The position numbers were made by a program, and so were the translations under genes. Positions 187 through 62,284 of a stretch of DNA of 64,000 nucleotides are shown here, one piece after another. How positions within the stretch are numbered: the first letter of the stretch is position 1; each line of letters begins with the position of its first letter. Under the pieces are notes generated by a model, which was given only the letters and a program-made list of their open reading frames with translations, did no database searches and had not been told where the DNA came from. This stretch comes from an uncultured Clostridia bacterium (GTDB lineage: Bacteria > Bacillota > Clostridia > UMGS1883 > UMGS1540): assembly GCA_937966555.1 (NCBI GenBank), contig CALCLY010000036.1, forward strand, positions 122,116 through 186,115, read 5' to 3'.

Positions 187-604
187 TCCGACAACTCCTT
201 TACTACTATTATTTTACCACTAACATAGTAATATCCCGTGAAGCTGTCAATAATTTGCCGTTTATAAATAAATTTCCGGTATAAAGTTTATTGAATAAGC
301 GGCAATTTGACAAATGTACGGATTTTCAGATATAAATTAATGTCTACTGAACAAATGGTTTTGCGAAACCATTTGTGTGAAACCTTCGGTTTCACACCTA
401 AAAACAGCATAAGAATGCCGTTTTTAGGTTCACAACATTGATTTAATTACTGTTTCAAGTCAACTGTCGGGGGACGACAGCCGACTTGAAAGTGCAAGAC
501 TTTTGGCAAAAAAGCACAAAATCCTTGCACTTGAACAATTACAAAATGCCGAAAAAATTAGTATATGAGTGCATTTTGTAATTGTTCAGCAGCCATTAAA
601 TTAA

Positions 605-650
605 GCCCGAATATGCAAGCTGACATTTGCTTGTATATTCGGGCTTTTTC
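605..650. terminator. GC-rich hairpin (GCCCGAATAT...ATATTCGGGC) followed by TTTTTC; putative intrinsic terminator
   Basis: A 10-bp perfect stem is read directly, with a T-run on the + strand and an A/T-rich tail on the - strand. It lies just after the stop of the sigma-factor gene on the minus strand. Confidence 0.5.
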
Positions 651-658
651 TGTTTGTG

Positions 659-1522: not shown

Positions 1523-1524
1523 TT

Positions 1525-2748
1525 TTATACCGTAACACCTTTTTCGACCGCTTTATATAAATTGTGTTTCTCCATATCGTGCTCAAAATCTTCTGCCGTG
1601 TAATTATCGTCACGGCGAAATTTATGCTTTAAGTCCTTTGCCAGTCTTTTTGCTTTTTCCGCAAATTCCTCCGATATAACTCCCTGCGACTTTTCGGCAC
1701 GGATACAACTGCACCGCCTGTTATAAATATCCGTAATTTTATCATTTTTCGCAAGCTCCTTTTGGTTGTTCTTCGCCGCAAACTTTCTGCAAGTGATTCT
1801 TTCGCCGTCGGTAAGTTCAAGCGGCGCAAAACCCATACAATACTTTTGCTTTCTCGCATTTTCCATAAGGAAGTATGTTTCGCAAATTTCGCATTGCCTC
1901 GGATAATGTCCAAACAAAAGTCCTTCAAAGAAATCAGTTAGGATAAAGCTGTAAAATGTTTCAAAATGAAGCCTTTTTACCAACGCTTTCTTATTGCCCT
2001 TTGGAACGGCAATATATTCGGTTGTTATGTTAAATTGGGCTTTATCAAAAATTTTGTTTGCAAGTGTTAAAAGCTCACTTTCGTTGTAATGCTCCAAATC
2101 ATCCAAGCTCCAAACAAACTCCGTCAAATGTTCAAATGCTTTCATCATATCGTTACCGATATTTTCGTAAAATCTCAATATCCGTATTACAAATCCGATA
2201 AATTCGTTTGCCTTTTTTGAAAGCTCCGCATATCCGTCGGGTAGTATGTCAAGCAGCATTGCACCCTCATCTTGCGTGGATACCTTTGCTCTTTGCCTAT
2301 AATAGTCCAATATGAAGTCTGCATTTTCCTTTGTAAAGGTTTCGGATATTGTTTTTCTCTCGCTTTCAATATCCAGATAGCAGAACGGACTGAAATTTGG
2401 GAGTACATCAAGAATATACAAAATCTCTTTTCCAGTCCTTACAAATTCATAATCGTTTATATAACCTCTTTCCATTGAGGAGGACAATATGTGATTGTCA
2501 AAGGTCATTGCGGCTATCCTTGCACCGTTGTCATTTTCCTCATATCGGTTAAGAAAATCGACGGCAAAACTGCCGACAGTAAATTTATTTTTGTCTATGA
2601 AGGTAAACTTATCTCTGTAATCAACTGTGAAAAACTCTATTTTATCCGGCATATCGAACACCTCAAAACTTTTCAATTTTTTTTGCAAACTTTTATTGCG
2701 AAATATATTTCGTATATCTATTATACCATAACTTTGCTTGTATTTCAA
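1525..2748 (-). CDS. hypothetical protein with a C-terminal CxxC...YC...C motif (DUF6076-like by recollection); partner of the sigma factor
   Basis: 407-aa ORF with a 2-nt gap to the sigma gene, so probably co-transcribed. The Cys motif CEICETYF...YCMGF...CRKF recurs in the truncated paralog at 14295-15005. Confidence 0.4.
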   Translation of the reverse strand: MKYKQSYGIIDIRNIFRNKSLQKKLKSFEVFDMPDKIEFFTVDYRDKFTFIDKNKFTVGSFAVDFLNRYEENDNGARIAAMTFDNHILSSSMERGYINDYEFVRTGKEILYILDVLPNFSPFCYLDIESERKTISETFTKENADFILDYYRQRAKVSTQDEGAMLLDILPDGYAELSKKANEFIGFVIRILRFYENIGNDMMKAFEHLTEFVWSLDDLEHYNESELLTLANKIFDKAQFNITTEYIAVPKGNKKALVKRLHFETFYSFILTDFFEGLLFGHYPRQCEICETYFLMENARKQKYCMGFAPLELTDGERITCRKFAAKNNQKELAKNDKITDIYNRRCSCIRAEKSQGVISEEFAEKAKRLAKDLKHKFRRDDNYTAEDFEHDMEKHNLYKAVEKGVTV

Positions 2749-2940
2749 GGGGTTTAGCTGATTGCGGTTTTTATTTTAATACACTTTCGCAATACTTACC
2801 TTTTTGTAAAATCCCTTACATTCTATATATCGGAAGGGGACAAGACAAGCCCTTTCAAATCTTTGAAATGAGATGTGATGCCTATGATTGTATCAATCTG
2901 ACACGAACAATACTAATATGAAAAACGGAGGAATTTAATT

Positions 2941-3237
2941 ATGGGAGCTTATTCAAAAAGGCAGTTTGCAAGGTCAGATTTTGACAGAACGGGATACGAA
3001 TTTAACGAAACAGAGGGAGTGTTTTCCGGAACACTCGTATGTAAAGCTTGGGGTAAAAAGTGTAACATTGTTTGTTATGCGGATTTAGATGACGGGAGAA
3101 AAATAATTTGCACCGCTTATCAAAAGCCGGGCAACTATTTTGGACTACCTGATATCGAGGTCGGTACAAGAATAATTCTTGAGTTCAAAAGAAGCAAACA
3201 AGGTAAAATGCGACTCAATTCAGTACGGGCAGAATAA
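2941..3237 (+). CDS. hypothetical small protein (98 aa)
   Basis: Clean ORF with RBS AACGGAGGAA. It is divergent from the sigma operon. No family was recognised. Confidence 0.3.
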   Translation: MGAYSKRQFARSDFDRTGYEFNETEGVFSGTLVCKAWGKKCNIVCYADLDDGRKIICTAYQKPGNYFGLPDIEVGTRIILEFKRSKQGKMRLNSVRAE

Positions 3238-3376
3238 CTGTCCTGTACTGTAACGAGCAGGGAGCTTGTATTGCACAAACTCCGAAAACGGCGAGAGTTC
3301 TTAATGAACTCCCGCCGATGATTTTAGGGAGAACCCTAATACCCCGAACAAAATTTTAATAGCAGGAGATGATTTT

Positions 3377-3664
3377 ATGAATGAGAGAACAACCGCAATT
3401 TATGTGCGTGTTACCGAAAAAGAAAAATCACGCATAAAACAAAAAGCAGACAAGTGCGGTTTATCGCAATCGGAGTATTTAAGAAAGAGAGCTTTGGGAT
3501 ATTCGCCCAAAGCTCTTTTGCCGGAAAGCTTTTATGAATTTTCGAGTAAGCTCGGCGAAGTGTATGAGCAAATCAACAAGGAATATAACACAGAAGTTGA
3601 GGAAAAACTTTTATCCCTGCTTGATGAAATTCAGCTAAAGCTACTGACACCCGAAAACGAATAA
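3377..3664 (+). CDS. mobC: MobC-family plasmid mobilization relaxosome accessory protein (ribbon-helix-helix)
   Basis: 95 aa. The segment TAIYVRVTEKEKSRIKQKADKCGLSQSEYLRKRALG is typical of MobC RHH proteins. It lies immediately upstream of the relaxase. Confidence 0.6.
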   Translation: MNERTTAIYVRVTEKEKSRIKQKADKCGLSQSEYLRKRALGYSPKALLPESFYEFSSKLGEVYEQINKEYNTEVEEKLLSLLDEIQLKLLTPENE

Positions 3665-3671
3665 AGGAGGT

Positions 3672-5048
3672 ATGCGTGACGTGGCTACAACAGGATTTTG
3701 GCCCGTTAAGGGCAGTTTGAAAGATGTTGTAAATTATGCGGATAACCCCGATAAAACCACCAATTCGAAATACCTCAATAAAGATTTGGCAAACGCACTT
3801 AAATATGTCGAAAACGATAGTAAAACGGATATGAAAATGTTTGTAAGCGGAATCAACTGCCCGACGGTTAGGGCTTATGAACAGATGATGGTAACAAAAC
3901 GCCGTTACGGAAAACTTGGTGGAAATGTTGCATATCACGGTTATCAAAGCTTTAAATCAGGCGAAGTCACTCCCAAAGAAGCACATAAAATCGGCATTGA
4001 AACCGCAAAGCGTATGTGGGGCGGAAACTACGAAATCGTTGTCACAACGCACCTCAATACCGAAAATATCCATAATCATTTTGTAGTCAATTCAGTATCG
4101 TTTAAGACGGGTCGGAAATTTGAAAATCATATTTCAGATCATATCCGTCTGCGTGAAATTTCTGACGTGGTATGCAAGGAATTTAACAAATCGGTAATTG
4201 AAAACGCAAAATTTTATAACAGCGATAAAAAATCATATTGGATACACAAGCAAGGCAAGAAAACACATCGGGATATTTTGCGTGACGATGTGGATTTTGC
4301 GGTTAAAACCTCCGGAAATCTTATGGAATTTGAGCGGATAATGATAAATATGGGATATTCGTTTAATCGAAATATTATGTCGGCACACCCGTCTGTTATT
4401 GCTAAAGGCTGGCAAAGACCTGTTCGCATTGATAGCTTGGGAGAAGAATATTCAACCGAAGGGCTTGTAAAACGAATTGCGGATAACAAGATTTTTGTAA
4501 GCTCTTTCGCCAAAAGCGAGCGAGTACACAAAACAAAGCCAAAGCATACGCCGTTTGCGGAAATGGAATATCAACTGCGGCGGGTAAAATATATGGACAC
4601 ATTAGAGGCTATGTTTTATCTACTCTTAGAGTTGTTAAAACCGTCAAATCCTACCACTAATTACAAGCCACCTTTATCTCCGTTTATGCGTGAGGAAATA
4701 AGAAAGTTTGAACAATACCAAAAGCAGTTCAAGCTCTTGCACGATGAAAAAATCAACACCGTGTCGGAGCTTGAATTTTTTATATCCGACCTATCCAAAC
4801 AGATTAACGATTTGGAAAAGGAACGCTCAAATGCCGATAACAAACGCAGACGAGCCACAACAGATGCGGACAAGAAAATGTATAAGTCTGAAATCAGGGA
4901 TATATCCGCAAAGATAAAACCTATAAGAGAAAAACTGAAAATTGCCAAATCCACATTAGAGTCTGTGCCAAAAGTACAAGAACTGCTTAATATTGAGCGA
5001 GATATGGAAAACAAAATTTTACACAAAGAGAGGAGCAAAATACGATGA
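3672..5048 (+). CDS. relaxase/mobilization nuclease (MobA/VirD2 family)
   Basis: 458 aa. Histidine-triad motif HLNTENIHNHFVVN, an N-terminal relaxase-domain pattern and a C-terminal coiled-coil tail. Its end overlaps the next gene by 4 nt. Confidence 0.75.
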   Translation: MRDVATTGFWPVKGSLKDVVNYADNPDKTTNSKYLNKDLANALKYVENDSKTDMKMFVSGINCPTVRAYEQMMVTKRRYGKLGGNVAYHGYQSFKSGEVTPKEAHKIGIETAKRMWGGNYEIVVTTHLNTENIHNHFVVNSVSFKTGRKFENHISDHIRLREISDVVCKEFNKSVIENAKFYNSDKKSYWIHKQGKKTHRDILRDDVDFAVKTSGNLMEFERIMINMGYSFNRNIMSAHPSVIAKGWQRPVRIDSLGEEYSTEGLVKRIADNKIFVSSFAKSERVHKTKPKHTPFAEMEYQLRRVKYMDTLEAMFYLLLELLKPSNPTTNYKPPLSPFMREEIRKFEQYQKQFKLLHDEKINTVSELEFFISDLSKQINDLEKERSNADNKRRRATTDADKKMYKSEIRDISAKIKPIREKLKIAKSTLESVPKVQELLNIERDMENKILHKERSKIR

Positions 5049-5890
5049 AAAATATTACATATATAGAAATTGAAAAATTGAAACCATTTGAAAATCATCC
5101 TTATAAGGTTGTGGAGAATGAAGAAATGAACAATTTAACGCAAAGCATTAAAGAAAACGGAATTTTATCACCGTTTATTGTGCGACCTATCGAAAATGGC
5201 GAATATGAAATAGTATCGGGGCATCGCAGACTATTTGCAGGCAAACAGGCAGGACTTACGAAAATTCCGGCAATAGTATGTGAAATGGATAGAGATACTG
5301 CCGCTATTACATTGGTTGACAGCAATCTTCATAGAGAAAATATTTTACCAAGCGAAAAAGCATTCGCATATAAGCTGAAGGCAGAGGCTTTATCTCATCA
5401 AGGCAAACGCACAGATTTAACTTTGGAGCAAGTTGCACCGAAGTTAAGTACGGAAACAATCGGCGAAAGCGAAAATATAAGTAAGGATACCGTAAAGCGA
5501 TACATACGCTTGACCAAGCTTTTGCCAAAATTGTTGGAACTCGTTGATGAGGCGCGAATTGCTTTCACTCCGGCAGTCGAGCTTTCCTATCTAAATGACA
5601 TCGAGCAACAGGATTTAATTGAAATAATCGAAAGCGAGGATTGCACTCCGTCATTATCACAGGCGGTGCGTATGAAAAAGTTAAGTCAACAAGGACTACT
5701 TACAGACGATAAAATCCTTGAAATTATGTCGGAGGAAAAGGCAAATCAAAAGGAACGAATAAAAATTCCAACAGAGCGAGTGCGAAAATTCTTTCCCCAA
5801 AGTTACAGCACATCGCAAATTGAAGAAGCAATTATTAAACTGTGCGAAACGCATTATCGCAAAAAACAGCGGCAGCAACAAGAAAGGTAA
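5045..5890 (+). CDS. ParB/Srx N-terminal domain protein (ParB-like nuclease/partition protein)
   Basis: Motifs IEIEKLKPFENHPYKV ... YEIVSGHRRLFAGKQAGL are typical of the ParB N-terminal domain. Confidence 0.75.
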   Translation: MKNITYIEIEKLKPFENHPYKVVENEEMNNLTQSIKENGILSPFIVRPIENGEYEIVSGHRRLFAGKQAGLTKIPAIVCEMDRDTAAITLVDSNLHRENILPSEKAFAYKLKAEALSHQGKRTDLTLEQVAPKLSTETIGESENISKDTVKRYIRLTKLLPKLLELVDEARIAFTPAVELSYLNDIEQQDLIEIIESEDCTPSLSQAVRMKKLSQQGLLTDDKILEIMSEEKANQKERIKIPTERVRKFFPQSYSTSQIEEAIIKLCETHYRKKQRQQQER

Positions 5891-5902
5891 GGTGAGTTTT
5901 AT

Positions 5903-6085
5903 ATGACAAAACAAGCTAACAGTCTATACGAGTTTTTTTCTCCGACTTTAGATAAGGACAATTTGGATTTTGAATTAAAAATCGGCGGTACAACCTACGA
6001 GATATGCACTCGCTTTAATATCAATGGCAAACAAAGCATATTGGAGCAGTTCAAAAACTTGATTTTATCAGAAAATTTGATTTAA
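5903..6085 (+). CDS. small conserved hypothetical (60 aa), possibly a TnpW-type accessory protein of TnpX-like transposons
   Basis: A short ORF sits between the ParB-like gene and the serine recombinase. The motif IGGTTYEI resembles the IGNTTY of transposon-encoded TnpW proteins. This is recollection only. Confidence 0.3.
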   Translation: MTKQANSLYEFFSPTLDKDNLDFELKIGGTTYEICTRFNINGKQSILEQFKNLILSENLI

Positions 6086-6168
6086 TACATTCGACAATTT
6101 GTGTCGGGCATAGTAAAATAGCAATGAAGCCTTTGCTATGCCCGGTTGTCGGAAAGGAGAAACGAATT

Positions 6169-7860
6169 ATGACAACTCAAAATATTATAGGGCAAACAAC
6201 AGAAGAAATAACTGCATTGTACGGAAGATTATCACAAGATGACGGTTTGGAGGGCGAAAGCAACAGCATATTCAATCAAAAAGAAATTCTGATGAAATAT
6301 GCAAAAGAGCACAATCTGAAAAATCTGAGATTTTTTATTGATGACGGAATTTCAGGTACAACCTTTGAGCGAAGCGGCTTTAAGGAAATGCAAGCACTTG
6401 CAGAAGCCGGAATTGTAAAAACTATTGTGGTAAAAGATTTATCCCGTTTCGGCAGAAACTACATTGAAGTCGGCGAATATCTTGAAATCAAATATCCCAC
6501 TCTCGGCGTAAGGTTTATATCTATTCAGGAAAATGTTGACACAATGCAAAACACAGGTGCGGAAATGATGCCGTTTCATAATATATTTAATGAATGGTAC
6601 GCCGCACAGACAAGCAAGAAAATTCGTGCCGTATGGCAGATGAAAGCCTCAAGCGGAAAGCGTGTCGGCTCATCTGTCCCTTACGGATATATGAAATCTC
6701 CCGAAGATAAGGAAAAATGGATAATTGATGAAGAAGCCGCAGAGGTTGTCAGAAAGATATTTTCACTATCTCTCTCCGGGCGAGGTATTTCACAAATCGC
6801 CCGTCAATTAGAGCAAGAAAAAATACTTATTCCTACGGCATATAAAATAGAAAAAGGATTATCCGCATCGCACAAGTATCCCGAAAAACCCTATTATTGG
6901 GATTCATCAACCGTTGCAGGAATAATTGATAACAGACAGTATACGGGATGTACTGTAAATTTCAAAACAACAACAGTAAGCTACAAAGTTCATAGGGTTA
7001 TACGTAAATCCGAAGATGAGCAGCAAATAATTCCTAACACACAAGAACCGATTATAGATGAGGACTTGTGGTTACGAGTTCAAGAGCTTCGTCAGCATAA
7101 GAGAAGACCGACATCTACGGGAAGGACAAGCCTGTTTTCGGGTTTGGTTTATTGCCCCGATTGCGGAGCAAAATTGCATTTTGCCGCCGCTAAGAGTATG
7201 ACAAGACAGCAGGAGCATTTCAGATGTTCAAATTACAAGAGCGGTCGGGGTGAATGTCAAATACATTTCATAAGAGATGTAGTTCTTGAAAAAATAGTAT
7301 TTGAAGCCATAAGCAACTTATCTGATTTTGTCAGATGTTATGAATCGGTATTTTTGTACTTGATGGCAACAAAAAATCAAACGTCAAGAAAAAGTAAGCT
7401 TCAAAAACTGAAAAGCAAGGTGGAAAACGAAAAAAGACGAATATCCGAGCTTGATGTGATTATTTCACGCATTTACGAGGACAATATTTTAGGCAAGATA
7501 AGCGATGAAAGATATTCCCGAATGTCTGTTATGTACGAAAACGAGCAAAAAGAGCTTATAAAAACAGTTTCCGCCGAAGAAAAAGAATTGGAAACAGCCG
7601 AGCAAAAAAATGTTGATATGCGGCTGCTGCTAAAAACGCTGCGAGAATTGACCGATTTTAAGGAGCTTACTCCGACAATCGTTAATTCTTTGATACAACG
7701 GATAGAAGTTCACAACAACGATAAGTATGATGGTCATTGCCACGTAAAAGTCGATATTTACTTTACTGCCGTGGGAATGATTGATGTTCCTGATGAAAAA
7801 GAAATATTGGATATAATAAATAAAATCCAAGATAATCCACAGATGTACAAGGTTGGATAA
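6169..7860 (+). CDS. large serine recombinase (TnpX/TndX-like; resolvase N-domain, recombinase domain, zinc ribbon, C-terminal coiled coil)
   Basis: Catalytic motif YGRLSQDD near the N-terminus. Also DDGISGTTFERSGF, the zinc ribbon CPDCGAKLH...CSNYKSGRGEC, and a long C-terminal coiled coil. The RBS AAAGGAG lies 8 nt before the ATG at 6169; the longer ORF from 6124 is less likely. Confidence 0.85.
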   Translation: MTTQNIIGQTTEEITALYGRLSQDDGLEGESNSIFNQKEILMKYAKEHNLKNLRFFIDDGISGTTFERSGFKEMQALAEAGIVKTIVVKDLSRFGRNYIEVGEYLEIKYPTLGVRFISIQENVDTMQNTGAEMMPFHNIFNEWYAAQTSKKIRAVWQMKASSGKRVGSSVPYGYMKSPEDKEKWIIDEEAAEVVRKIFSLSLSGRGISQIARQLEQEKILIPTAYKIEKGLSASHKYPEKPYYWDSSTVAGIIDNRQYTGCTVNFKTTTVSYKVHRVIRKSEDEQQIIPNTQEPIIDEDLWLRVQELRQHKRRPTSTGRTSLFSGLVYCPDCGAKLHFAAAKSMTRQQEHFRCSNYKSGRGECQIHFIRDVVLEKIVFEAISNLSDFVRCYESVFLYLMATKNQTSRKSKLQKLKSKVENEKRRISELDVIISRIYEDNILGKISDERYSRMSVMYENEQKELIKTVSAEEKELETAEQKNVDMRLLLKTLRELTDFKELTPTIVNSLIQRIEVHNNDKYDGHCHVKVDIYFTAVGMIDVPDEKEILDIINKIQDNPQMYKVG

Positions 7861-7976
7861 CAAGGAAAATGGAGTAGCTCCTTGATTTTGGAACTACTCC
7901 ATAAAAAACTTCCTTATCTGGCGTTGGCAAACGTCAACCGACTTTTTAAACAGCCCCTTTTCGTTTTTTTTATTTA

Positions 7977-9179
7977 TTATTTATTTACTATTCTTAAAGT
8001 TTCCCTTGCTATGGCAAGCTCTTCGTTTGTGGGAAGGAGGAGAACTTTAACTTTCGAATCGGGTGCGGAAATTACGCGTCTTTCGCCTTTTACGTTATTT
8101 GCTTCGTCATCGATTTTAACACCGAGGTATCCGAGATAATCATCGCAAATAAGTTTGCGTGCTTTTATATCGTTTTCGCCGACACCTGCCGTAAATGCGA
8201 TAGCGTCAACACCATTCATTGCAGCGGCATATGCGCCGATGTATTTTGCAACTCTGTATCTGAAAGCTTCAAGAGCCGCTTCTGCCTGATGGTTACCAGC
8301 TGCCGCAGCTTTGTCAACATCGCGGAAGTCGGAAGAAATGCCGCCGCTCATGCCCAGGATACCGGACTTTTTGTTGAGTATATTGAGCATTTCGTTAATG
8401 TCGATTCCTTCATGATTGCAGATAAACTGAAGCGCAGCGGGGTCAATGTCGCCGGAGCGAGTTCCCATGATAAGTCCCTCCAAAGGAGTGAGACCCATTG
8501 ATGTGTCAACACATTTGCCGCCTATGGAAGCAGATATGCTCGCGCCGTTTCCGAGATGGCATACGATAACTTTAGCTTTGTCGGGATCAAGGTTTGCCAT
8601 TTTTATAGCTTCGCCCGAAACAAACATATGGCTTGTGCCATGGAAGCCATAGCGGCGGAGCTTGTATTTTTTATAATAATTATAGGGGATAGCATAAAGA
8701 TATGCTTTTTCTTCCATTGACATGCCGAACGCCGTGTCAAATACAGCAACGTTGGGCTTACCCGGCATTGCTGCTTCGCATGCTTCAATACCTATAAGGT
8801 TTGCGGGGTTGTGAAGCGGTCCCAAATCAAAACACTCACGGATGACTTTTTTAACGTCCTCGTCAACCTGAATTGATTCCGTATATGTATTTCCGCCGTG
8901 GAGTACACGGTGACCGATGGCATAAATATCGGAAGTGTCTGCGATAACACCGTGCTCTTTATCCGTGAGCGCATCAAGAACCAATTTTATTGCATCTTTG
9001 TGCGAGGGCATGGGTGTTTCGGTTTCGTATTTGTCCTTGCCTGTGGGCTTATGCGTGAGTTTCGAGCCGTTTATGCCGATTCTTTCGCAAAGACCTTTTG
9101 CAAGAACCTGTTCGCTTTCGCTGTCAATAAGCTGATACTTAAGCGAAGAACTTCCGCAGTTTACTATGAATATTTTCAT
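7977..9179 (-). CDS. ackA: acetate kinase
   Basis: MKIFIVNCGSSSLKYQLID... gives full-length AckA homology. The ATG at 9179 is preceded by AAGGAG. The tool ORF starts 15 nt upstream at a TTG. Confidence 0.9.
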   Translation of the reverse strand: MKIFIVNCGSSSLKYQLIDSESEQVLAKGLCERIGINGSKLTHKPTGKDKYETETPMPSHKDAIKLVLDALTDKEHGVIADTSDIYAIGHRVLHGGNTYTESIQVDEDVKKVIRECFDLGPLHNPANLIGIEACEAAMPGKPNVAVFDTAFGMSMEEKAYLYAIPYNYYKKYKLRRYGFHGTSHMFVSGEAIKMANLDPDKAKVIVCHLGNGASISASIGGKCVDTSMGLTPLEGLIMGTRSGDIDPAALQFICNHEGIDINEMLNILNKKSGILGMSGGISSDFRDVDKAAAAGNHQAEAALEAFRYRVAKYIGAYAAAMNGVDAIAFTAGVGENDIKARKLICDDYLGYLGVKIDDEANNVKGERRVISAPDSKVKVLLLPTNEELAIARETLRIVNK

Positions 9180-9197
9180 GTTTTTCTCCTTCAAAAA

Positions 9198-10205
9198 TTA
9201 TTTTTGTATCATCTGAGCCTGTACGCATGTGATTGCAACAACGCCTGCGATATCATCGGCGTTACAGCCTCTTGAAAGGTCGTTTACGGGAGCTGCTATA
9301 CCCTGGAGAACAGGACCGTATGCCTCAGCCTTTGCAAGACGCTGAACAAGCTTGTAGCCTATGTTGCCGGCATCAAGATTCGGGAATATAAGAACGTTTG
9401 CATGACCTGCAATAGCACTATCGGGAGCTTTTGCTTTGCCTATCTCGGGAACGATTGCAGCGTCAAGCTGAAGCTCGCCGTCAAGCTTTAATTCAGGAGC
9501 TTTTTCTTTTGCAAGACGTGTAGCTTCAACAACTTTTTCAACAAGCGTATGCTTTGCGGAACCGTAGCTTGAGTGAGAAAGCATTGCAACTTTCGGTTCT
9601 GCACCGAAAAGGTTCTTGAAGGACTGAGCCGAGGAAATTGCAATTTCAGAAAGCTCGTCTGCTGTGGGATCCTGGTTAAGACCGCAGTCGGCGAATACAA
9701 ATGCGCCGTTTTCGCCGTATTCGCAGTCCGGAACTATCATGGCAAAAAATGCCGATACAAGCTTTGTGCCGGGAGCTGTTTTGAGAATTTGAAGTGCGGG
9801 GCGCAAAACATTTGCCGTGGCGTTTATAGCACCTGCAACCATGCCGTCAGCGTCGCCGGACTTAACCATCATTGTGCCGAAATAAAGAACATTGTCAAGA
9901 GTTTCCAAAGCCTTTTCGGGCGTCATGCCTTTTGCTTTGCGAAGCTCATAAAACTTATCGGCATAAGCGGCTTTGTCGGGCGAAGTTTTGGGATTTATAA
10001 GCTTTGCGGCGCTGATATCAAGATTTTCACTTTCAGCCATTTTTTTGATTTCGGATTCATCACCCAAAATGATAATGTTGGCTATTTCATCTTTCAAAAC
10101 TTTTGCCGCAGCGCGGATTGTACGCATATCACTGCCTTCGGCAAGAACAACGGTTTTCTTGTCGCTCTTGGCTTTTGCAATGATTCCGTCCATAAATTTA
10201 CTCAT
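9198..10205 (-). CDS. pta: phosphate acetyltransferase
   Basis: 335 aa with Pta-family homology throughout (…TVVLAEGSD…RAAA…GMVAGA…). It forms an operon with ackA. Confidence 0.9.
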   Translation of the reverse strand: MSKFMDGIIAKAKSDKKTVVLAEGSDMRTIRAAAKVLKDEIANIIILGDESEIKKMAESENLDISAAKLINPKTSPDKAAYADKFYELRKAKGMTPEKALETLDNVLYFGTMMVKSGDADGMVAGAINATANVLRPALQILKTAPGTKLVSAFFAMIVPDCEYGENGAFVFADCGLNQDPTADELSEIAISSAQSFKNLFGAEPKVAMLSHSSYGSAKHTLVEKVVEATRLAKEKAPELKLDGELQLDAAIVPEIGKAKAPDSAIAGHANVLIFPNLDAGNIGYKLVQRLAKAEAYGPVLQGIAAPVNDLSRGCNADDIAGVVAITCVQAQMIQK

Positions 10206-14017: not shown

Positions 14018-14109
14018 GGACGGGTATCGAAGTGGTCATAACGGGGCTGACTCGAAATCAGTTTGTCGGTAATACCGGCACGTGGGTTCGAATCCCACCC
14101 CGTCCGCCA
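14018..14109 (+). tRNA. tRNA-Ser (anticodon CGA), type II with long variable arm
   Basis: GGACGGG...CCCGTCC acceptor stem, T-arm GGTTCGAATCC, anticodon loop CTCGAAA, CCA encoded. Confidence 0.85.
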
Positions 14110-25469: not shown

Positions 25470-28400
25470 TTATTTTAGGTTTTCCAGCACACGCATAAAT
25501 ACCGCGGCTGCCTGCGCTCTTGTCGTATTGGCCTTTGGTGCAAAGCTCCCATCCGTATTACCTGTCATAATGGACTTTTCCGCCGCCCATGTTACAGCGT
25601 CCTTCGCATAGTCTGAAATGTCGCTGTTGTCCATATAGGCTGTGCTGCCGCTTGTCGTTATATCATATCCCTTGAATGTTGCATAGCGATAGATCATTAC
25701 TACCATCTGCTCTCTGGTTATATTATCATTCGGAGCAAATTGATTTTCGGAAATTCCGAAGATTATACCGTTATTGCTTGCCCACGCAACAGCCTTTTCA
25801 TAATAGCTTCCGCTTTCTATGTCAATAAAGGCGGCTGCAGCTGTCTGCGGCTCATTTTCCATTCTGTAAAGAATTGTAACAAACATTGCCCTTGTAATAT
25901 CGCTTTGGGGTGCAAATTCCGTATTTGATACGCCTTTCATCAGACCGTTTTCGTATGCGTATTTCACCGAATCATAAAACCAGTCGTTTTTGTGAATGTC
26001 TGTAAACGGATTTTCCCATTCTGTCGGTTTTGGTGGGTCAACCGGATCAACAGGCTTTTCGTTTTCGTTCCACTTTGCATAAAGCGTAAAGTCCTTTGTA
26101 ACCTTGCTTGCAAAATCATATTTTGCAGTCAATTTTTCATCTGTGTACCAGCCGTCAAAGGTAAAACCTTCTTTTGCAGGAGCAGTCGGCTCTTTAACAA
26201 CACTATTTTTTGTTACGGAAGATGATGTAATTGCGTTTCCGCCGTTTGTTTCAAACTTAACTGTGTAGCGTGTTGTTCCGCCGCCGCCACCGCCGCCGCC
26301 ACCGCCGCCGGACGAATTAACAGTAAAGCGGATTGTCTTATCAATCGTGGTCAAATTGGTGGCTGTTACACGAACTGTTGCGGTGTAAGTGCCTGCGGCC
26401 AAGCCTGTGTTGGGCTTGATGGTGAAAGTTGTGGTGCCGGATGTTGCCAGATTCGTATTAAAACCCGTCTTATCCAGCGTGAAGCTGTCGGCATTGGCTC
26501 CGGTCAGGGTCACATCCAGAGAAGCAAGAGCACCGGTGCCGGTATTGGTGATCGTAAAGGTCTCTGCGGTCTGCTCGCCGTAGCCTACGGTCCGTGCAGC
26601 AAAAGTTTTACCGTCCGGTGTGACTGTTGCCGTATAAGTCAGGGGCACATCGTCTGCCGGGACGGTGACCGTAGTGGTTGCACCTGCAAAGTGTGTATCA
26701 GTTTCCGCTATGCGGACATAGTAGGTGCCTGCGGTAAGTCCGGTGATCTCGGTGCCGGAGCATACAGTACCTGCGGGGCTGGCAAAGTTAGAGTCGGTGC
26801 TGTACTCCATAGCTGTGGTTGTACCGGTTATCTTACCGTCGGAGCCGCCCAAAGTGGTGGGATTCACTCCGTTCAAACCGGTAGGAGCACCGGGACTGTC
26901 AGCCTTTTTAACCGCAGCGGTTGCGGCGCTGGTAAGTGTGCCGGTTTCCTCGCTGCTGGAAATCTCCACGGTGATGGTCGAGCCGATGTCGGCCTTAACC
27001 AGCGTGTAGGTGCTGTTCATTGCGCCGGAGATGTCGGAGCCATCACGCTTCCACTGATAGGACAGCGTGCCGGTATTATTGCCGCTTTCAAGAGATGCTG
27101 TCAGGGTCTGACCGAACTTAGCCGTACCGGTGATCGTGGCTGTGCCGGTCAGGGCGGGGTTCTCCGTCCAGCGCGCGTAATATTCGCTACTTGAATCTGT
27201 ATAAACTGTGTCCAGACTCAACAAAGTGCCGCCGCTTTCTGCTGTATACCACCCGGCAAAGATGTAGTGCTCTTTTGTCGGTGTCGGCACCTGTTCCGCG
27301 GTCAACTTGCCGTCCGTACCGGTAACAAGTTCCACACGATAACTTTCATCTCCGATTTTTCCGCCCTGCGTATAGAAGCCAACGATATATTTTGTAACGC
27401 CGCCGAGAGGACTCATAGAAAACGGAACGCCGTAAGAATATTTCACTTCGTCTATCGTATAGTTAGTATACACAACCCCCGGGTTATTGCCTCCCAAGGT
27501 GACATCTGTTTCATTCAGCTCTGCCAGTGCCAACCCGTCCTGTGCCTTGAAGTATATCCACAGAGTGTATTTAATCCCCGAAATGAACTGTGCAGAAAGC
27601 TTTGTTGCGTCAGAATAACTTCCGCCGGAGTCTGAGTATTGCCACTTATACGTGAATTCTACACCCGCCGTATTGCAGGTGACAACCGCATCCGCAACAT
27701 TTTCTCCCTCCGTATATCCGGTATAGGAAAATGAAACGCTGTCAATCGCTCCCCACAAGGCATATACCGTGGTTGCCTCGCTGAAAACCGTTGTCTCCGT
27801 TATCTTCATTCCTCCGCTTGCTGCGGTATACCATCCGTCGAAGGTGTAGCCCTCCCTTGTCGGAACCGGAAGTGATGCCAATTTACCTTTATCCGCCGCC
27901 GGTATCGTTATTGTATCCGTATCCTTGCCGTTTACCTTGCCGCCGTTTGCATCAAATGTTACATCAATGTCAACGGCGGGCACCCAGCGCGCGTAAAATT
28001 GGTTTCTTGGATCTGTATAAACTGTGTCCAGACTCAACAAAGTGCCGCCGCTTTCTGCTGTATACCACCCGGCAAAGATGTAGTGCTCTTTTGTCGGTGT
28101 CGGCACCTGTTCCGCGGTCAACTTGCCGTCCGTACCGGTAACAAGTTCCACACGATAACTTTCATCTCCGATTTTTCCGCCCTGCGTATAGAAGCCAACG
28201 ATATATTTTGTAACGCCGCCGAGAGGACTCATAGAAAACGGAACGCCGTAAGAATATTTCACTTCGTCTATCGTATAGTTAGTATACACAACCCCCGGGT
28301 TATTGCCTCCCAAGGTGACATCTGTTTCATTCAGCTCTGCCAGTGCCAACCCGTCCTGTGCCTTGAAGTATATCCACAGAGTGTATTTAATCCCCGAAAT

Positions 28401-28664
28401 GAACTGTGCAGAAAGCTTTGTTGCGTCAGAATAACTTCCGCCGGAGTCTGAGTATTGCCACTTATACGTGAATTCTACACCCGCCGTATTGCAGGTGACA
28501 ACCGCATCCGCAACATTTTCTCCCTCCGTATATCCGGTATAGGAAAATGAAACTGCTTCTATCTCTGTTCCCGCCGCACTCGCCGTCACGCCCATGGCGG
28601 GCACGAGGGAAAGCAGCATTGCCAGTGTCAGTAAAACAGAAAAAAATTGTCTTGTCTTTTTCAC
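25470..28664 (-). CDS. large S-layer-homology (SLH)-anchored cell-surface protein with Listeria-Bacteroides-type repeats, internal duplication and poly-Gly linker
   Basis: Likely start is the GTG at 28662-28664 (RBS AAAGGAGGA, signal peptide VKKTRQFFSVLLTLAMLLSLVPAMGVTASAAGT). Three C-terminal SLH repeats (…WFYDSVKYAYENGLMKG…, …YYEKAVAWASNNGIIFG…, …YAKDAVTWAAEKSIMTG…). GW-type repeats (GYTFDGWYTAASGG). Confidence 0.8.
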   Translation of the reverse strand: MKKTRQFFSVLLTLAMLLSLVPAMGVTASAAGTEIEAVSFSYTGYTEGENVADAVVTCNTAGVEFTYKWQYSDSGGSYSDATKLSAQFISGIKYTLWIYFKAQDGLALAELNETDVTLGGNNPGVVYTNYTIDEVKYSYGVPFSMSPLGGVTKYIVGFYTQGGKIGDESYRVELVTGTDGKLTAEQVPTPTKEHYIFAGWYTAESGGTLLSLDTVYTDPRNQFYARWVPAVDIDVTFDANGGKVNGKDTDTITIPAADKGKLASLPVPTREGYTFDGWYTAASGGMKITETTVFSEATTVYALWGAIDSVSFSYTGYTEGENVADAVVTCNTAGVEFTYKWQYSDSGGSYSDATKLSAQFISGIKYTLWIYFKAQDGLALAELNETDVTLGGNNPGVVYTNYTIDEVKYSYGVPFSMSPLGGVTKYIVGFYTQGGKIGDESYRVELVTGTDGKLTAEQVPTPTKEHYIFAGWYTAESGGTLLSLDTVYTDSSSEYYARWTENPALTGTATITGTAKFGQTLTASLESGNNTGTLSYQWKRDGSDISGAMNSTYTLVKADIGSTITVEISSSEETGTLTSAATAAVKKADSPGAPTGLNGVNPTTLGGSDGKITGTTTAMEYSTDSNFASPAGTVCSGTEITGLTAGTYYVRIAETDTHFAGATTTVTVPADDVPLTYTATVTPDGKTFAARTVGYGEQTAETFTITNTGTGALASLDVTLTGANADSFTLDKTGFNTNLATSGTTTFTIKPNTGLAAGTYTATVRVTATNLTTIDKTIRFTVNSSGGGGGGGGGGGTTRYTVKFETNGGNAITSSSVTKNSVVKEPTAPAKEGFTFDGWYTDEKLTAKYDFASKVTKDFTLYAKWNENEKPVDPVDPPKPTEWENPFTDIHKNDWFYDSVKYAYENGLMKGVSNTEFAPQSDITRAMFVTILYRMENEPQTAAAAFIDIESGSYYEKAVAWASNNGIIFGISENQFAPNDNITREQMVVMIYRYATFKGYDITTSGSTAYMDNSDISDYAKDAVTWAAEKSIMTGNTDGSFAPKANTTRAQAAAVFMRVLENLK
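26277..26309 (-). repeat. 11 consecutive glycine codons (GGC/GGT/GGA) encoding a poly-Gly linker
   Basis: + strand reads ccgccgccgccaccgccgccgccaccgccgccg. Protein reads SSGGGGGGGGGGGTT. Confidence 0.9.
27195..27737. repeat. copy 1 of a ~543-bp apparently identical intragenic direct repeat (copy 2 at 28011-28553, offset 816 bp)
   Basis: Identical nucleotide lines by inspection. The shadow ORFs 27267-27635 and 27999-28451 have identical translations. The protein carries an identical ~180-aa segment twice. Confidence 0.8.
28011..28553. repeat. copy 2 of the ~543-bp intragenic direct repeat
   Basis: See copy 1. Identity breaks at 28010/28011 and 28553/28554. Confidence 0.8.
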
Positions 28665-28692
28665 ATTTATATCCTCCTTTTGATGTGATGTT

Positions 28693-29274
28693 CTACTTGC
28701 CTCCGATATTCCGGCTTGAAATTGCATTACCGCAATACTCGCATTTGCCGGAGCTTCCGGCGCGAATTCTTGTTGTTCCGCTGCATTTTTCACACACAAT
28801 GTTAACAAAGCTTGTTTTACTGCCTTCTCTGCCCGAAAGAATCACGCAGGGCATGCCCTGCTTTTGCAGAGTGCAGTCACAGAATACTCCTTTGCCGAAA
28901 AGCTTCTCAAGCTCGGAAAGTACCTTGAACGGCGGTTTCCCCGATTGCTTTGCAAGCTCGTCAATTGTCACCATGCCGTCAGCATCACACATAAAGATTG
29001 AGTTGTAGCGATATGCAAGACCTGCCCTTCTGCCGTTTTTAATCCCGTTTAACAAAAGCAATCCGGACGGAACAACCATGACTATATTGGTAATCAAGTT
29101 ATCGCGAAGCTCTTCGTTATACCCGGTAACCCCGGAAATAATTCCAAACAGAAAAACCGCCGTGAAGAATCCGCCTATAATCATTTGTATGTGCTTTTTT
29201 AATGTAAGCCTTGCAATTGCCACTTTTGAAATATATGTTCCGCCACCCGAAAAGATTGTTTGATTCGTCTTCAT
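28693..29274 (-). CDS. membrane protein with C-terminal zinc ribbon (CEKCSG...CEYCGN)
   Basis: 193 aa from the ATG at 29274 (GGAGG 8 nt upstream). TM segment followed by CxxC...CxxC. Confidence 0.5.
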   Translation of the reverse strand: MKTNQTIFSGGGTYISKVAIARLTLKKHIQMIIGGFFTAVFLFGIISGVTGYNEELRDNLITNIVMVVPSGLLLLNGIKNGRRAGLAYRYNSIFMCDADGMVTIDELAKQSGKPPFKVLSELEKLFGKGVFCDCTLQKQGMPCVILSGREGSKTSFVNIVCEKCSGTTRIRAGSSGKCEYCGNAISSRNIGGK

Positions 29275-56412: not shown

Positions 56413-58755
56413 ATGTTTGATATTGTCTTTAAACAAATGACAAATGAATATGAGCCATGCTATACATGGCTTTGGAATACAAAAATCACTCGATACGGAA
56501 TAAAAAAAAGAATTGATGAAATGCATGAAACAGGCATAAAATCATTTTACGTGTTGGGGGAACCGAAAAATTTCCGACCGCAAAAAAGAAAAACCTTCCT
56601 TGAGCCGGACTATTTGTCGGATGAATACATAGAATTGCTGCGCTATGCCATCGGGTATGCGAAGAAAAAAGGTATGCGCTGCTGGCTTTACAACGAAGGA
56701 GGATTCCCTTCGGGCATGGCGGCGGGGAAAATAGTCTCAACAGATCCAAGCCTGCGGAAAAAGGGGATTTCGGTACGGGAAACAAATGTAAGCAAGGGCG
56801 AAAAATACAAACCGCATGAAAGGCTTATCAGCGCTTTTTTTGAAAATTCAAGGATAAAGGAAGATTTTGTTTTTCCGCGCGACGGAGCCGTTTGTGAATA
56901 TACAGCCTGCGAAAAGCGAGAAATATCGGCATGGTGCGATGAGAAGCAGGCAGATATTGCAGATGAGAAAACAACCGCGCTGTTTTTGAAGGTCACGCAC
57001 GAAAGGCTTTTAAAGGGCTTGGGCGATGAGAATATGCGCCGCTGCCTTTATCTGTTTGACGATGAATCAAACATGGGCGGCTGGTCGGAGGGCTTTGAAG
57101 TCTTGTTTATGAACAAATACGGATATGACATTGCCGGTTTCATGCCATATATATGCGGAAAAAAGAAAAAAGGAAACGAAAATGATAAAAAGGCAAAAGC
57201 GGATTACGAAATGCTTTGCGGAGAGCTGCAAAACGTCAATTATTTCCTCAAAATGAAGCGGTGGCTCAATAAACACGGCATGAAAAGCGTCGGACACCTT
57301 GATAAGGATAACGAAACAGACGGCTTTATGCAGCTGCATTACGGCAATTCTCTTAAAATACTGAGAAGCTTTGATGTGCCCGGAATAGATGTTATATGGG
57401 GGCAGATAACATATCCGAAGGATGAAAAATGCTGCTTTGAAGGGTATGAATTCTTTCCGCTTATTGCGTCCTCGGCATCAAGGCAAAACGGAAGCAATGA
57501 AGCGCTGTCTGAAACCTTTGCGGTATACGGCTCGCAGCTTAATGCCGAGGAAATGCGCTTTGTTATTAATTATCAGGCGGTAAGAGGAATCAATATTTTT
57601 AATTTTATGACCATGTCATACGAAAAGAAGGGCATTTTGCCGTTTCAGTACAGACCGAGCTTTATCCCCGAAAACCCGGGCTGCGAATGCCTTTCGGAAA
57701 TAAACGGGTATACCGCAAGACTTTCATATCTCATGAGAAGCGGAAATGCCGTAATCGATACGGCGCTTTACTATCCCTTCAGAACAATATGCGCAGGGGG
57801 AGAAGAAGCCGAAAAAGCAAAAGAAAGCTTTGAAAAAAAGGGGCTTATGCTGGAAAGAGCGGGGATATGCTTTGACCTGGTCGACGAGGAATATCTTAAA
57901 AGCCCTAAAAAGCCCGTAGAATACAAAAATATATATGTTCCGTTTGCTCCGCTTGAAACAGATGAAACGAAGGCCTTGCTTTCAAAGTATAAGGCGTGTG
58001 CCGAGCCGCTGATAAAGTGCGAAAACTTCGTCAGATGCAGAGCGGTGGAAAACGGAGGCGAGAGACTTTATTTTGTCACAAACGAGAGCGGCGTGAGAAA
58101 GAAAACGGAAATTGTACTGCCCGAGAACAGAAACGTATACGAGATTAATTTGCGTGACGGCAAAATTTACGGCGTGAAGTGCAAAGCTGCGGATAACGGT
58201 GTAAAAATTACGATTGATGCTTACAGGGGAGAGGGAAAGATGTTTCTTTGTACCGACAGAAGCATAGATGCGGTGAATGTAAAAACAGAAGAACCCGTAA
58301 CCCTTATTTGCGGCAGCGCCCATATTTTAAGAAGATACACGGTTGAAAACGGAGCCGTAAACAAAAAAGTAAACGAAAAAACGGTATTGGGCTATGCTCC
58401 GAAGGATTTTTCGGGAGAAATAAAATATTCGCTTAAACTGCCCGGTGAAATTGAGGAGGGAGAGTATTATATAGAGCTTGATGAGCCGAGATATTTTGTT
58501 AAAGCATATAAAAACGGCGGAAAAATCGCAGAGGTAACAATGCCTCCTTATATAATTAAAACATTCTTAAAGCCGGGAGACGAGCTTGATTTCCTTGTAT
58601 CAAATACGGCTGCAAACGCCTGTGCGGCTACGGATTTTTTTGATAATATCCCGCCCGATAAGCTTGGCAGCTACAGTGCGGATATGATAAAGCGCGAAAG
58701 AAAAGCCCTGTGCGGAGGGTTTGGCGGCAGAGTTATGCTGTACAAAATCATTTAA
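56413..58755 (+). CDS. putative glycoside-hydrolase-like protein (780 aa, cytoplasmic)
   Basis: The N-terminal TIM-barrel-like pattern (…GIKSFYVLGEP…WLYNEGGFPSG…) is reminiscent of GH enzymes. The family is not resolved. Confidence 0.35.
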   Translation: MFDIVFKQMTNEYEPCYTWLWNTKITRYGIKKRIDEMHETGIKSFYVLGEPKNFRPQKRKTFLEPDYLSDEYIELLRYAIGYAKKKGMRCWLYNEGGFPSGMAAGKIVSTDPSLRKKGISVRETNVSKGEKYKPHERLISAFFENSRIKEDFVFPRDGAVCEYTACEKREISAWCDEKQADIADEKTTALFLKVTHERLLKGLGDENMRRCLYLFDDESNMGGWSEGFEVLFMNKYGYDIAGFMPYICGKKKKGNENDKKAKADYEMLCGELQNVNYFLKMKRWLNKHGMKSVGHLDKDNETDGFMQLHYGNSLKILRSFDVPGIDVIWGQITYPKDEKCCFEGYEFFPLIASSASRQNGSNEALSETFAVYGSQLNAEEMRFVINYQAVRGINIFNFMTMSYEKKGILPFQYRPSFIPENPGCECLSEINGYTARLSYLMRSGNAVIDTALYYPFRTICAGGEEAEKAKESFEKKGLMLERAGICFDLVDEEYLKSPKKPVEYKNIYVPFAPLETDETKALLSKYKACAEPLIKCENFVRCRAVENGGERLYFVTNESGVRKKTEIVLPENRNVYEINLRDGKIYGVKCKAADNGVKITIDAYRGEGKMFLCTDRSIDAVNVKTEEPVTLICGSAHILRRYTVENGAVNKKVNEKTVLGYAPKDFSGEIKYSLKLPGEIEEGEYYIELDEPRYFVKAYKNGGKIAEVTMPPYIIKTFLKPGDELDFLVSNTAANACAATDFFDNIPPDKLGSYSADMIKRERKALCGGFGGRVMLYKII

Positions 58756-58845
58756 ATACAGAAATTTCATTTTTAGCTTTAAATTAAAAGCATAAAGAGA
58801 GGGTGGTGCAAAACGAAATTGCAATCACCCTCTTTAATATATTTA

Positions 58846-58925
58846 TTATTTTTCGCTGACGATTCTTAAAGTTTCTCTTGCTATGGCAAGCTCCTCTTTT
58901 GTCAGAGAAAGAAGGAAAACGAATG
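58846..58925 (-). pseudogene. 3'-terminal fragment of an acetate kinase gene (…VFLLSLTKEELAIARETLRIVSEK*)
   Basis: 41-nt stretch 58862-58902 is 38/41 identical to ackA 3' end 7990-8030. The translated 22 aa align to the AckA C-terminus. No upstream gene body is present. Confidence 0.5.
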
Positions 58926-59008
58926 GCTGCAAAAATACAGACTTGCGCATCAAGCGTATGCCCCCTCGGGCAGGGGCGGGCAAACGAGATGTTCAAAACT
59001 GTATATCT

Positions 59009-59176
59009 GTAATCCTGAAATCAGTACACTCCGACAGAATAAAGGAAAATATTGATATTTTCGATTTTGTTCTTACAGATGAAGAAATGAGCGCACTTTT
59101 GGCGCTTGATACCGCAAAACCGATGATTGGAAAAGCCGAAAACTCCGAAACAACTGAATTTGCAATGACATGGTAA
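59009..59176 (+). pseudogene. 3'-terminal fragment of an aldo/keto reductase gene (…VILKSVHSDRIKENIDIFDFVLTDEEMSALLALDTAKPMIGKAENSETTEFAMTW*)
   Basis: This matches the conserved AKR C-terminus (IPKS..R..EN...FDF.L..EEM..L..L). The tool ORF 58883-59176 has an unrelated N-terminal part. Confidence 0.5.
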
Positions 59177-59411
59177 AATCTTTCTTTACTCTAAAACAAC
59201 TTGCCGATTGATAGCTTATCGTTTTTCGGCAGGTTACACGAGTTTTCTGTTCCAGGCGAAAAAGAAGTATGTTTGAATATTGTTATTGACTTAAAGATTC
59301 CCGGGTATGCCCCAAGTATGCTTTACAGTTCAAGCAAGACTTGAAAAACAGAGAAAAGGAAGATAAAAAGAAAAATACGAACAATCATAAAAATGAAAGT
59401 TCGTATTTAGA

Positions 59412-59503
59412 TGGCGGAGAAGGAGAGATTCGAACTCTCGCACCGGTTTCCCAGCCTACTCCCTTAGCAGGGGAGCCCCTTCGACCTACTTGGGTACTTC
59501 TCC
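59412..59503 (-). tRNA. tRNA-Ser (anticodon GCT), type II
   Basis: Reverse-complement sequence GGAGAAGTACCCAAGT...anticodon loop CTGCTAA...GGTTCGAATCTCTCCTTCTCCGCCA. Confidence 0.85.
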
Positions 59504-59531
59504 GTATGTGTTAAGTTTTAAAAGAGAATGT

Positions 59532-59618
59532 TTGGCGGAGAAGGTGGGATTCGAACCCACGGCTCTTTCGAGTCACTGGTTTTCAAGACCAGCTCCTTAA
59601 ACCGCTCGGACACCTCTC
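59532..59618 (-). tRNA. tRNA-Ser (anticodon TGA), type II
   Basis: Reverse-complement sequence GGAGAGGTGTCCGAGCGG...anticodon loop CTTGAAA...GGTTCGAATCCCACCTTCTCCGCCA. Confidence 0.85.
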
Positions 59619-59768
59619 CGCGTTGAGTTTAACAGCATATATTATTATAACAAAACGAAAACAGTTTGTCAAGAGTTTTTTAGAAAAAAATGCATTTTTC
59701 AAAAAAATAATATAAAAGAGTGTCATATACGCTTTACTTGCATATAATAAAAAAGGCGGTGATTAAAC

Positions 59769-62096: not shown

Positions 62097-62238
62097 AAAA
62101 AGGGGATGTTAAAAAACTCCGGAACGCAAGCAAATTTCTCCTCTCGACGTACCCATGTACGCCTTCGGGTATCCCAAACTTTAGTTTTGGCTCAGTTTGC
62201 CGATTCCAAAGCTTTTTTCCTATCCCCTTGAAAAAATG

Positions 62239-62284
62239 GGCTGCTTAAAAAGTCAACCGACTTTTTAAACAGCCCGCTTTTTTA
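62239..62284. terminator. bidirectional intrinsic terminator: GGGCTG-cttAAAAAGTC-aacc-GACTTTTTaaa-CAGCCC + GCTTTTTT
   Basis: Nested perfect stems are read directly. T-runs occur on both strands. The last codons of the minus-strand DUF3815 gene lie within it. Confidence 0.7.

Follow-up and report, generated by a model that had tools for sequence, protein, structure and literature searches.

Closest described systems

Gene ends without bodies are known in bacterial genomes as pseudogene scars from illegitimate or microhomology-mediated deletion, and short duplications of gene 3′ ends are known as the attL and attR copies of integrated elements. Homology-facilitated illegitimate recombination (HFIR) is an established route in transformable bacteria. 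The locus described here has a likeness to each of these. It lies at positions 58846-59176 of a 64,000-nucleotide stretch of DNA (hereafter, the window) from an uncultured Clostridia bacterium (contig CALCLY010000036.1 of assembly GCA_937966555.1), where the 3′ end of an acetate kinase gene (ackA) and that of an aldo/keto reductase (AKR) gene are joined. As in the pseudogene scars, the abutting 3′ ends have no bodies, few bases are shared at the join, small lesions followed later, and no conserved ORF is left. Unlike typical scars of that kind, the parent of the ackA piece (ackA′), a second or a relocated ackA, was not found, and the piece is an unusually sharp mosaic of identical and diverged sequence. 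What the locus has in common with att duplications is that a short part of a gene 3′ end is directly repeated amid active elements. HFIR would likewise leave the end of a foreign gene within a gene unrelated to it, but no anchor tract or pre-insertion allele was found here. In my estimation, the scar is probably a vestige of illegitimate (non-site-specific) recombination without function, for which one event may account.

Gene remnants and their junction

The window has a full-length acetate kinase gene on the minus strand at 7977..9194 (start at 9179 or 9194; PF00871, E=7e-147), with pta directly upstream at 9198..10205. It was found that 58862-58902 repeats 7990-8030, near the end of this gene, in direct orientation with 3 mismatches (38/41). 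This repeat had been reported in the first-pass annotation, and it was borne out by alignment and by shuffling, with no match in 100 dinucleotide shuffles. A search of the whole window for further copies of the 41-mer returned the two copies only. With a repeat finder, the ungapped repeat widens to 57 nt at 84% identity (58846-58902 against 7974-8030, the 3′ end of the real ackA, which the remnant resembles). The minus-strand reading of the remnant is ...TKEELAIARETLRIVSEK*, and the C-terminal reading of the real ackA is ...TNEELAIARETLRIVNK*. The ackA-derived stretch proper is about 48 nt in length (58846..58893, minus strand) and comprises 15 sense codons and a stop codon (ELAIARETLRIVSEK*); the last 9 nt of the 41-mer (58894-58902) are closer to AKR. 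Beyond the stop codon, the likeness to the 3′ flank of the real ackA (TAATAAATA) reaches about 58837.

The remnant is sharply mosaic. Over its core (58862-58893), it agrees at 32/32 positions with the ackA alleles of two conspecific loci, L032 and L036 (the retrieved loci are designated by L numbers), and the last five codons, that is, the final 15 nt, have 4 substitutions and one extra codon relative to ackA. Descent from an ackA 3′ end is thus indicated by the 38/41 match, the 57 nt at 84% and the 32/32 core. As for membership in the acetate kinase family, the full Acetokinase domain has about 390 residues, and the remnant has 15 sense codons and a stop codon only; the 45-aa minus-strand ORF over it has no Pfam match. 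Purifying selection on the tail was considered from the codon positions of the differences and was dropped, the count at third positions being 6/7 at first and 3/4 (p about 0.1) after removal of one within-species ackA polymorphism and of two AKR-derived bases at the junction.

The AKR remnant occupies 58894..59176 on the plus strand and corresponds to codons 162-281, the last 120 codons of a 281-codon gene. This extent was taken from a local alignment to the 843-nt AKR gene of L011, from its nt 484 (codon 162) through the stop codon. The plus-strand reading ends ...SDRIKENIDIFDFVLTDEEMSALLALDTAKPMIGKAENSETTEFAMTW*, with the stop codon at 59174-59176. The C-terminus matches PF00248 over positions 253-288 of 291 with E=0.005, which does not reach the gathering score. 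The DNA is 84-90% identical to the AKR gene of L011 and 80-83% to those of L012-15, and the protein is 81-99% identical to fragments annotated with PF00248. Thus, the earlier assignment of an AKR 3′ end on the opposite strand holds, and the descent of the piece from the 3′ part of an AKR gene is clear from the Pfam match and the identities. A complete (alpha/beta)8 barrel with the N-terminal catalytic Asp-Tyr-Lys-His region is lacking, as the remnant covers codons 162-281 only and is interrupted.

Two lesions were found in the AKR remnant. One is a 1-nt deletion near 58961-58962, and the frameshift that it causes is common to all strains. The other, which lies between the imperfect 12-nt repeats TGTTTGAAAATG and TGTTCAAAACTG, is a loss of 76 nt at 58989/58990. 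Because of the frameshift and the 76-nt deletion, the AKR reading crosses all three plus-strand frames. Missense changes are also present at conserved motifs (IPKS to ILKS, and QNG to QNC). The same two lesions had masked the beginning of the AKR piece, so that a gap of 100 nt between the fragments was assumed; in fact, the BLAST similarity to AKR genes opens at 58888-58894, and the AKR similarity, starting at 58894, abuts the ackA piece.

In relatives, an AKR gene of intact length is divergent to a gene for a merR-family regulator (L011, L012-15 and L016). The merR gene and the AKR 5′ part, which would mark a reciprocal junction, were sought throughout the window and were not found; thus, these parts were lost and not relocated within the window. 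The same AKR lineage is damaged in other relatives, by a 5′ truncation in L017 and an internal deletion in P0008. The merR-linked AKR gene of L011 has an in-frame TAG at a Gln position (L011:1333-1335) and those of L012, L013, L014 and L015 have an in-frame TAA at a Gln position (around L012:5962-5964), the ORFs being otherwise intact and conserved. These single stops, in two related organisms, are probably recent independent nonsense mutations. In another organism, P0057 (L059:554-913 and L060:292-651, two low-coverage contigs from different samples) joins the Arm DNA-binding domain from the N-terminus of a tyrosine integrase in frame to the tail of an AKR of the same family, its last ~47 residues, at ...RIKENIDIFDF. 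Since only short AKR homologues were retrieved, a conserved family of truncated AKR proteins was considered; it was dropped, as the search favours matches of the query length and did the same with an ackA query.

When the window was aligned jointly with the real ackA and with the AKR genes of L011 and L012, the junction zone came out as 58891..58902. The best-supported join is 58893/58894, because the window has the AKR base at both of the ackA mismatches within 58894-58902 (58894 and 58897). Around the join the parents read GCTC/TTCGTTTGT (ackA) and ACAT/CTTTTTTGT (AKR), which are patchily similar. The microhomology is weak, 1-3 nt if exact or 6/9 if patchy, and the joining mechanism is therefore not diagnostic; the parental arrangement was not recovered.

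The pieces are oriented head-to-head: the scar is bounded on the left by the ackA stop codon (58846-58848, minus strand) and on the right by the AKR stop codon (59174-59176, plus strand). Both are genuine gene remnants without bodies, as had been stated, but they are not arranged tail-to-tail: their truncated 5′ ends meet at 58893/58894 and their 3′ ends face outward. The argument that the missing bodies would overlap, and that at least two rearrangements occurred, was a geometric mistake. Since the remnants diverge, one deletion or one illegitimate join suffices.

Conservation of the scar among strains

The YunB, GH106, YjbR and AckA proteins of this species were found on hundreds of human-gut metagenome contigs. 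An identical ackA′/AKR junction is present in 10/10 retrieved loci covering the site, from 9 independent samples and several assemblers (MEGAHIT, SPAdes and others). The scar is fixed in the species and is neither a mis-assembly nor recent. That the fragments are an assembly chimera, or that the 41-mer is a generic motif common to many genes, has virtually no chance of being true. Two Logan contigs stop exactly within the 32-mer common to the real ackA, as a k=31 graph does at a repeat, which shows that such graphs are confused by it, and EELAIAR-type motifs are conserved at acetate kinase C-termini. However, an artefact is not compatible with a junction that was assembled through in 9 independent samples. 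The 41-mer has only two DNA copies in the window against 0 expected, and among the 120 acetate kinase C-termini retrieved, only those of this species end in ...ETLRIV.

The remnants vary slightly among strains. The 76 nt are present in L003, L006, L009, L010 and L022 and absent from the window, L002, L008, L050 and L051. Position 58848 is also polymorphic: this strain and L022 have TAA as the ackA′ stop codon, and most others have CAA in its place. This polymorphism occurs in both the 76-nt-present and the 76-nt-deleted backgrounds, a pattern which implies recombination among strains or recurrent deletion. The frameshift, the polymorphic 76-nt deletion and the polymorphic stop codon amount to neutral decay without a conserved reading frame, as in a deletion scar.

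Could the scar be a functional small element, either as a plus-strand antisense RNA against the ackA mRNA or as a new small protein from a chimeric 97-aa ORF? The 32/32 identity to real ackA alleles and the invariance of 58849-58893 across the 10 loci would agree with this, and an ORF is called by gene finders, of 97 aa in this genome and of 87 aa in other strains. However, at a strain diversity of only about 0.5-1%, 45 nt would be expected to stay unchanged even if no selection acted on them. Strong hairpin terminators insulate the ackA copy on both sides, and the sole promoter candidate facing it is a 9/12 match, which is within chance expectation. The 97-aa ORF has no Shine-Dalgarno sequence on direct reading. 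The 76-nt indel, not being a multiple of 3, switches the upstream frame that is joined to the AKR tail; thus, the ORF is 97 aa or 87 aa in length and no frame is conserved among strains. An Rfam scan of 58600-59760 found only the two tRNAs above threshold. A function is highly improbable, and nothing points to one.

Integrated elements around ackA and the tRNA-Ser genes

The tandem tRNA-Ser pair annotated about 240 nt downstream was confirmed. tRNA-Ser(GCT) (59412-59503, minus strand) lies 236 nt past the AKR stop codon and is accompanied by tRNA-Ser(TGA) (59533-59619, minus strand); the pair is driven by a perfect sigma-70-type promoter, TTGACA-17-TATAAT, at 59672-59644. Between the AKR stop codon and the pair is a hairpin at 59198..59235 (-17.5 kcal/mol, z=-4.25, on the plus strand; -14.8 kcal/mol, z=-3.05, on the minus strand). 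It is likely that this hairpin served as the terminator of the former AKR gene and that, on the minus strand, it stops transcripts running on from the tRNA-Ser operon.

In conspecific strains, integration takes place at the 3′ end of tRNA-Ser(GCT), with elements carrying a tyrosine integrase or a large serine recombinase at or next to it. The insert in L008, which is 4.8 kb in length and encodes both a tyrosine integrase and a serine recombinase, lies between 13-nt direct repeats of the tRNA-Ser(GCT) 3′ end (L008:818-830 and 5643-5655, corresponding to window 59412-59424). This is a genuine att duplication, 520 nt from the scar. In L001, L004 and L005, large-serine-recombinase elements stop 16-39 nt from tRNA-Ser(GCT). 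In the set of L001, L004, L005, L006 and L007, such elements end at the position equivalent to window 59396 or 59373, and L006 has a 1-kb replacement. Different integrase elements were also found in other strains beyond a third gene, tRNA-Ser(CGA) (14018-14109). In the region from there to about 45000, tyrosine-integrase elements are present in L039, L040, L044 and L045, and this genome has type I restriction-modification and DUF6076 genes. The cargo of the L040 element (Peptidase_M28/SLH, sigma-70 r4 and HTH_16 genes) is common to the L001 element at tRNA-Ser(GCT), and the recombinase differs.

Window 1-7925 is the right end of an integrative mobilizable element whose left end is beyond the window. 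It encodes a NikA-like protein and, as identified with Pfam, a relaxase (3672..5048), a ParB protein (5045..5890) and a terminal large serine recombinase (6124..7860, plus strand; the feature runs 6124..7925, to the right end of the element). Comparison with the empty-site strains L031 and L032 showed that the element interrupts the ackA terminator within its loop (junction at about 7905-7925), and the hairpin is thereby destroyed (z=-0.44, against an intact hairpin in the empty-site strains L031, L035 and L037). This element, not the scar, resembles IME_Rho_tet (PMC12904643) in having a relaxase and a terminal serine recombinase, as gut Bacillota IMEs do. The boundaries of IME_Rho_tet are 81-90 bp past the recombinase stop codon (PMC12904643), and that of the present element is 45-65 nt past it; the likeness is one of gene layout and boundary only.

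The DNA 3′ of ackA depends on the strain. L031, L035 and L037 have the empty site (ackA, terminator T1 and mreB), this genome has the NikA/relaxase/ParB/serine recombinase element in the T1 loop, as do L034 and L041 (100% identical), and L036 and L048, which stand for one strain, have a different sugar-utilisation island instead of mreB. In that strain, the ackA terminator has lost its loop, and there is also a second terminator, a homologue of window 58796-58835. The polysaccharide island (L036:6204-11203 and L048:6471-16470) encodes GFO_IDH_MocA, 896-aa, AraC, 707-aa and 971-aa heparinase-like proteins. Thus, three tRNA-Ser genes and the ackA terminator make the surrounding pan-genome a map of variable sites, at which integrase and serine-recombinase elements land.

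In the first-pass annotation, the scar was taken for the footprint of site-specific integration or of past excision. On this reading, an element targeting the ackA 3′ end would have supplied a replacement tail, the displaced or element-borne copy would remain as attL or attR, and the two copies would bound a 50.9-kb unit that had moved. The large serine recombinase/relaxase element immediately 3′ of ackA, and the integrase or serine-recombinase elements that other strains have at tRNA-Ser(GCT) and beyond tRNA-Ser(CGA), are in favour of such an origin. The tail differences are also biased toward the third codon position, but only in 3/4 substitutions after corrections (p about 0.1). Set against these points is the geometry. 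The second tail is 50.9 kb away on the 5′ side of the ackA body, while an insertion would leave a copy on the 3′ side (lower coordinates). Unlike att duplications, the ackA′ repeat is therefore on the wrong side of the gene; it is joined to a mid-gene AKR sequence without an inverted or direct att-like repeat, and no recombinase gene is next to the scar. In an att footprint, the copies bound an element that lies 3′ of the target and has its recombinase near one end; here, the recombinase (6124..7860) is outside the interval. At ackA, the junctions with elements were found 50-70 nt past the stop codon, in the terminator loop at 7905-7925, or past the terminator in L036, and none is in the coding tail.

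The strain comparison also argues against integration. The scar is fixed, with the same junction in 10/10 loci, while the elements vary by strain, and the empty/filled polymorphism of ackA maps to 7905-7925. No strain in which the two ackA tails had recombined was found among those retrieved. Nor is a move of the 50.9-kb interval as a unit supported: it includes the ackA body, pta and backbone genes, and strains differ in its inner part. An origin by site-specific integration is thus very improbable. The idea that the ackA 3′ end and the tRNA-Ser locus are recombination hot spots is correct for the neighbourhood, with elements at the tRNA-Ser(GCT) end and in the ackA terminator, and incorrect for the scar itself. 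The scar adjoins active integration sites and was not created by them.

Origin of the scar

The left neighbour of the scar is a gene for a GH106-like glycoside hydrolase (56413..58755, plus strand; 780 aa, PF17132 match). It is the final gene of a sugar cluster (AraC, p500, 778-aa, GFO_IDH_MocA and GH106 proteins), which is present in 10/10 strain contexts retrieved. Between the GH106 and ackA′ stop codons lies a bidirectional intrinsic-terminator hairpin with T-runs on both strands (58796..58835; designated T2′), with folding energies of -21.8 kcal/mol (z=-6.25) on the plus strand and -18.4 kcal/mol (z=-5.05) on the minus strand. T2′ sits 10 nt beyond the ackA′ stop codon and also serves the convergent GH106 gene. 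This spacing is as at a real gene end, which would support a former ackA end at this position. T2′ matches the terminator after the real ackA in L036 and L048 at 24/27 positions in its right half and about 38/45 overall; the motif was found nowhere else in the rest of the window and all fetched loci. In these two loci, a T2-type terminator lies beside the real ackA and a GFO island. Thus, this species does have an arrangement in which a sugar island and ackA converge on a T2 terminator, and the scar resembles what would be left of one.

The following account is proposed for the vestige. A full-length copy of the acetate kinase gene may once have ended here, convergent with GH106 and sharing the terminator at 58796-58835. 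A single deletion may then have taken the ackA body, the intervening DNA, merR and the first 57% of the AKR gene (161 codons). Alternatively, also in one step, a DNA end inside the ackA tail may have been joined illegitimately to the AKR gene at the patchily similar site. The AKR remnant would then have decayed by the 1-nt frameshift, seen in all strains, and by the 76-nt deletion, seen in some strains including this one. A simple history of duplication followed by deletion does not predict a 32/32 core beside a diverged tail.

In an alternative, ackA′ is an imported fragment that never was part of a full gene here. A segment ending in an ackA tail, from a strain or relative with an L036-like arrangement, would have hitch-hiked into the AKR gene with homology on one side and an illegitimate join on the other, replacing merR and the AKR 5′ part by homology-facilitated illegitimate recombination, the term used in PMC6382021. 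The T2/T2′ homology is in keeping with it, each terminator adjoining an ackA tail and a GFO-type island; in both places, a convergent sugar cluster with a GFO gene lies beyond the terminator. So is the step from the 32/32 core to the diverged last 5 codons, which resembles a recombination boundary, and so is the merely patchy microhomology at the join. However, every strain retrieved has both the scar and the AraC-to-GH106 cluster, and no pre-insertion allele was found that would support an import. The L036 island has just a GFO paralogue, 52% identical to that of the window cluster at the protein level, and a search for an import tract in the ackA-pta region of L036 found no raised divergence there. 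An imported end fragment is thus rather unlikely as the source of ackA′.

A broader form of this idea is that an ackA tail with a T2-type terminator is a recurrent docking end for sugar islands, with the ackA 3′ end as a homologous anchor, and that the scar is a misfired exchange into the AKR gene. If this were true, the 3′ end of a central-metabolism gene would act as an anchor for cassette exchange without a dedicated recombinase. I consider it very unlikely.

The ancestral arrangement was sought with several searches. A degenerate DNA pattern for ...EELAIARETLRIVSEK* had 0 matches in genome contigs. A relaxed pattern in metagenome contigs matched only the scar of this species and unrelated, 55%-identical ackA genes ending ...RIVTEK*. 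A protein search with the ackA C-terminus bearing the remnant tail gave 120 matches, none of which ends in SEK, and thus no acetate kinase ending ...RIVSEK* was found among them. No genome or contig with an intact ackA at the position of the scar was found in the collections searched. The nearest relatives in these collections are distant; outside this species, the best match to YunB has 64% identity and that to GH106 has 58%. A YunB-based synteny search of reference genomes found two distant loci (64% and 26%), with no tRNA-Ser, ackA, AKR or GH106 gene nearby, and ackA is not adjacent to the closest GH106 homologues (56-58% identity).

Annotation and minor observations

The scar is ordinary genome debris, which follows known principles throughout and matters little beyond annotation. 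The 97-aa and 87-aa ORF calls, as well as many AKR fragments in the protein databases, ought to be marked as parts of pseudogenes. Assemblies with k=31 break at the exact 32-nt repeat of ackA, a practical concern for the metagenome binning of this species.

Other repeats were found in the window. A 33-nt repeat (91%) at 7929-7961 and 62248-62280 belongs to a family of related terminator-hairpin or intergenic sequences. In the empty-site strains, the 148 nt that follow ackA have 86% identity to the DNA 3′ of the window ThrE_2 gene (L031:6224-6371 against window 62129-62275), and in some strains ~280 nt more are found there. A 300-nt direct repeat (98%) at 27168-27467 and 27984-28283 lies inside an ORF of 1112 aa (25470..28808). 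Two metagenome contigs of ERZ918356 jointly cover the window and break at this repeat (27168-28283).
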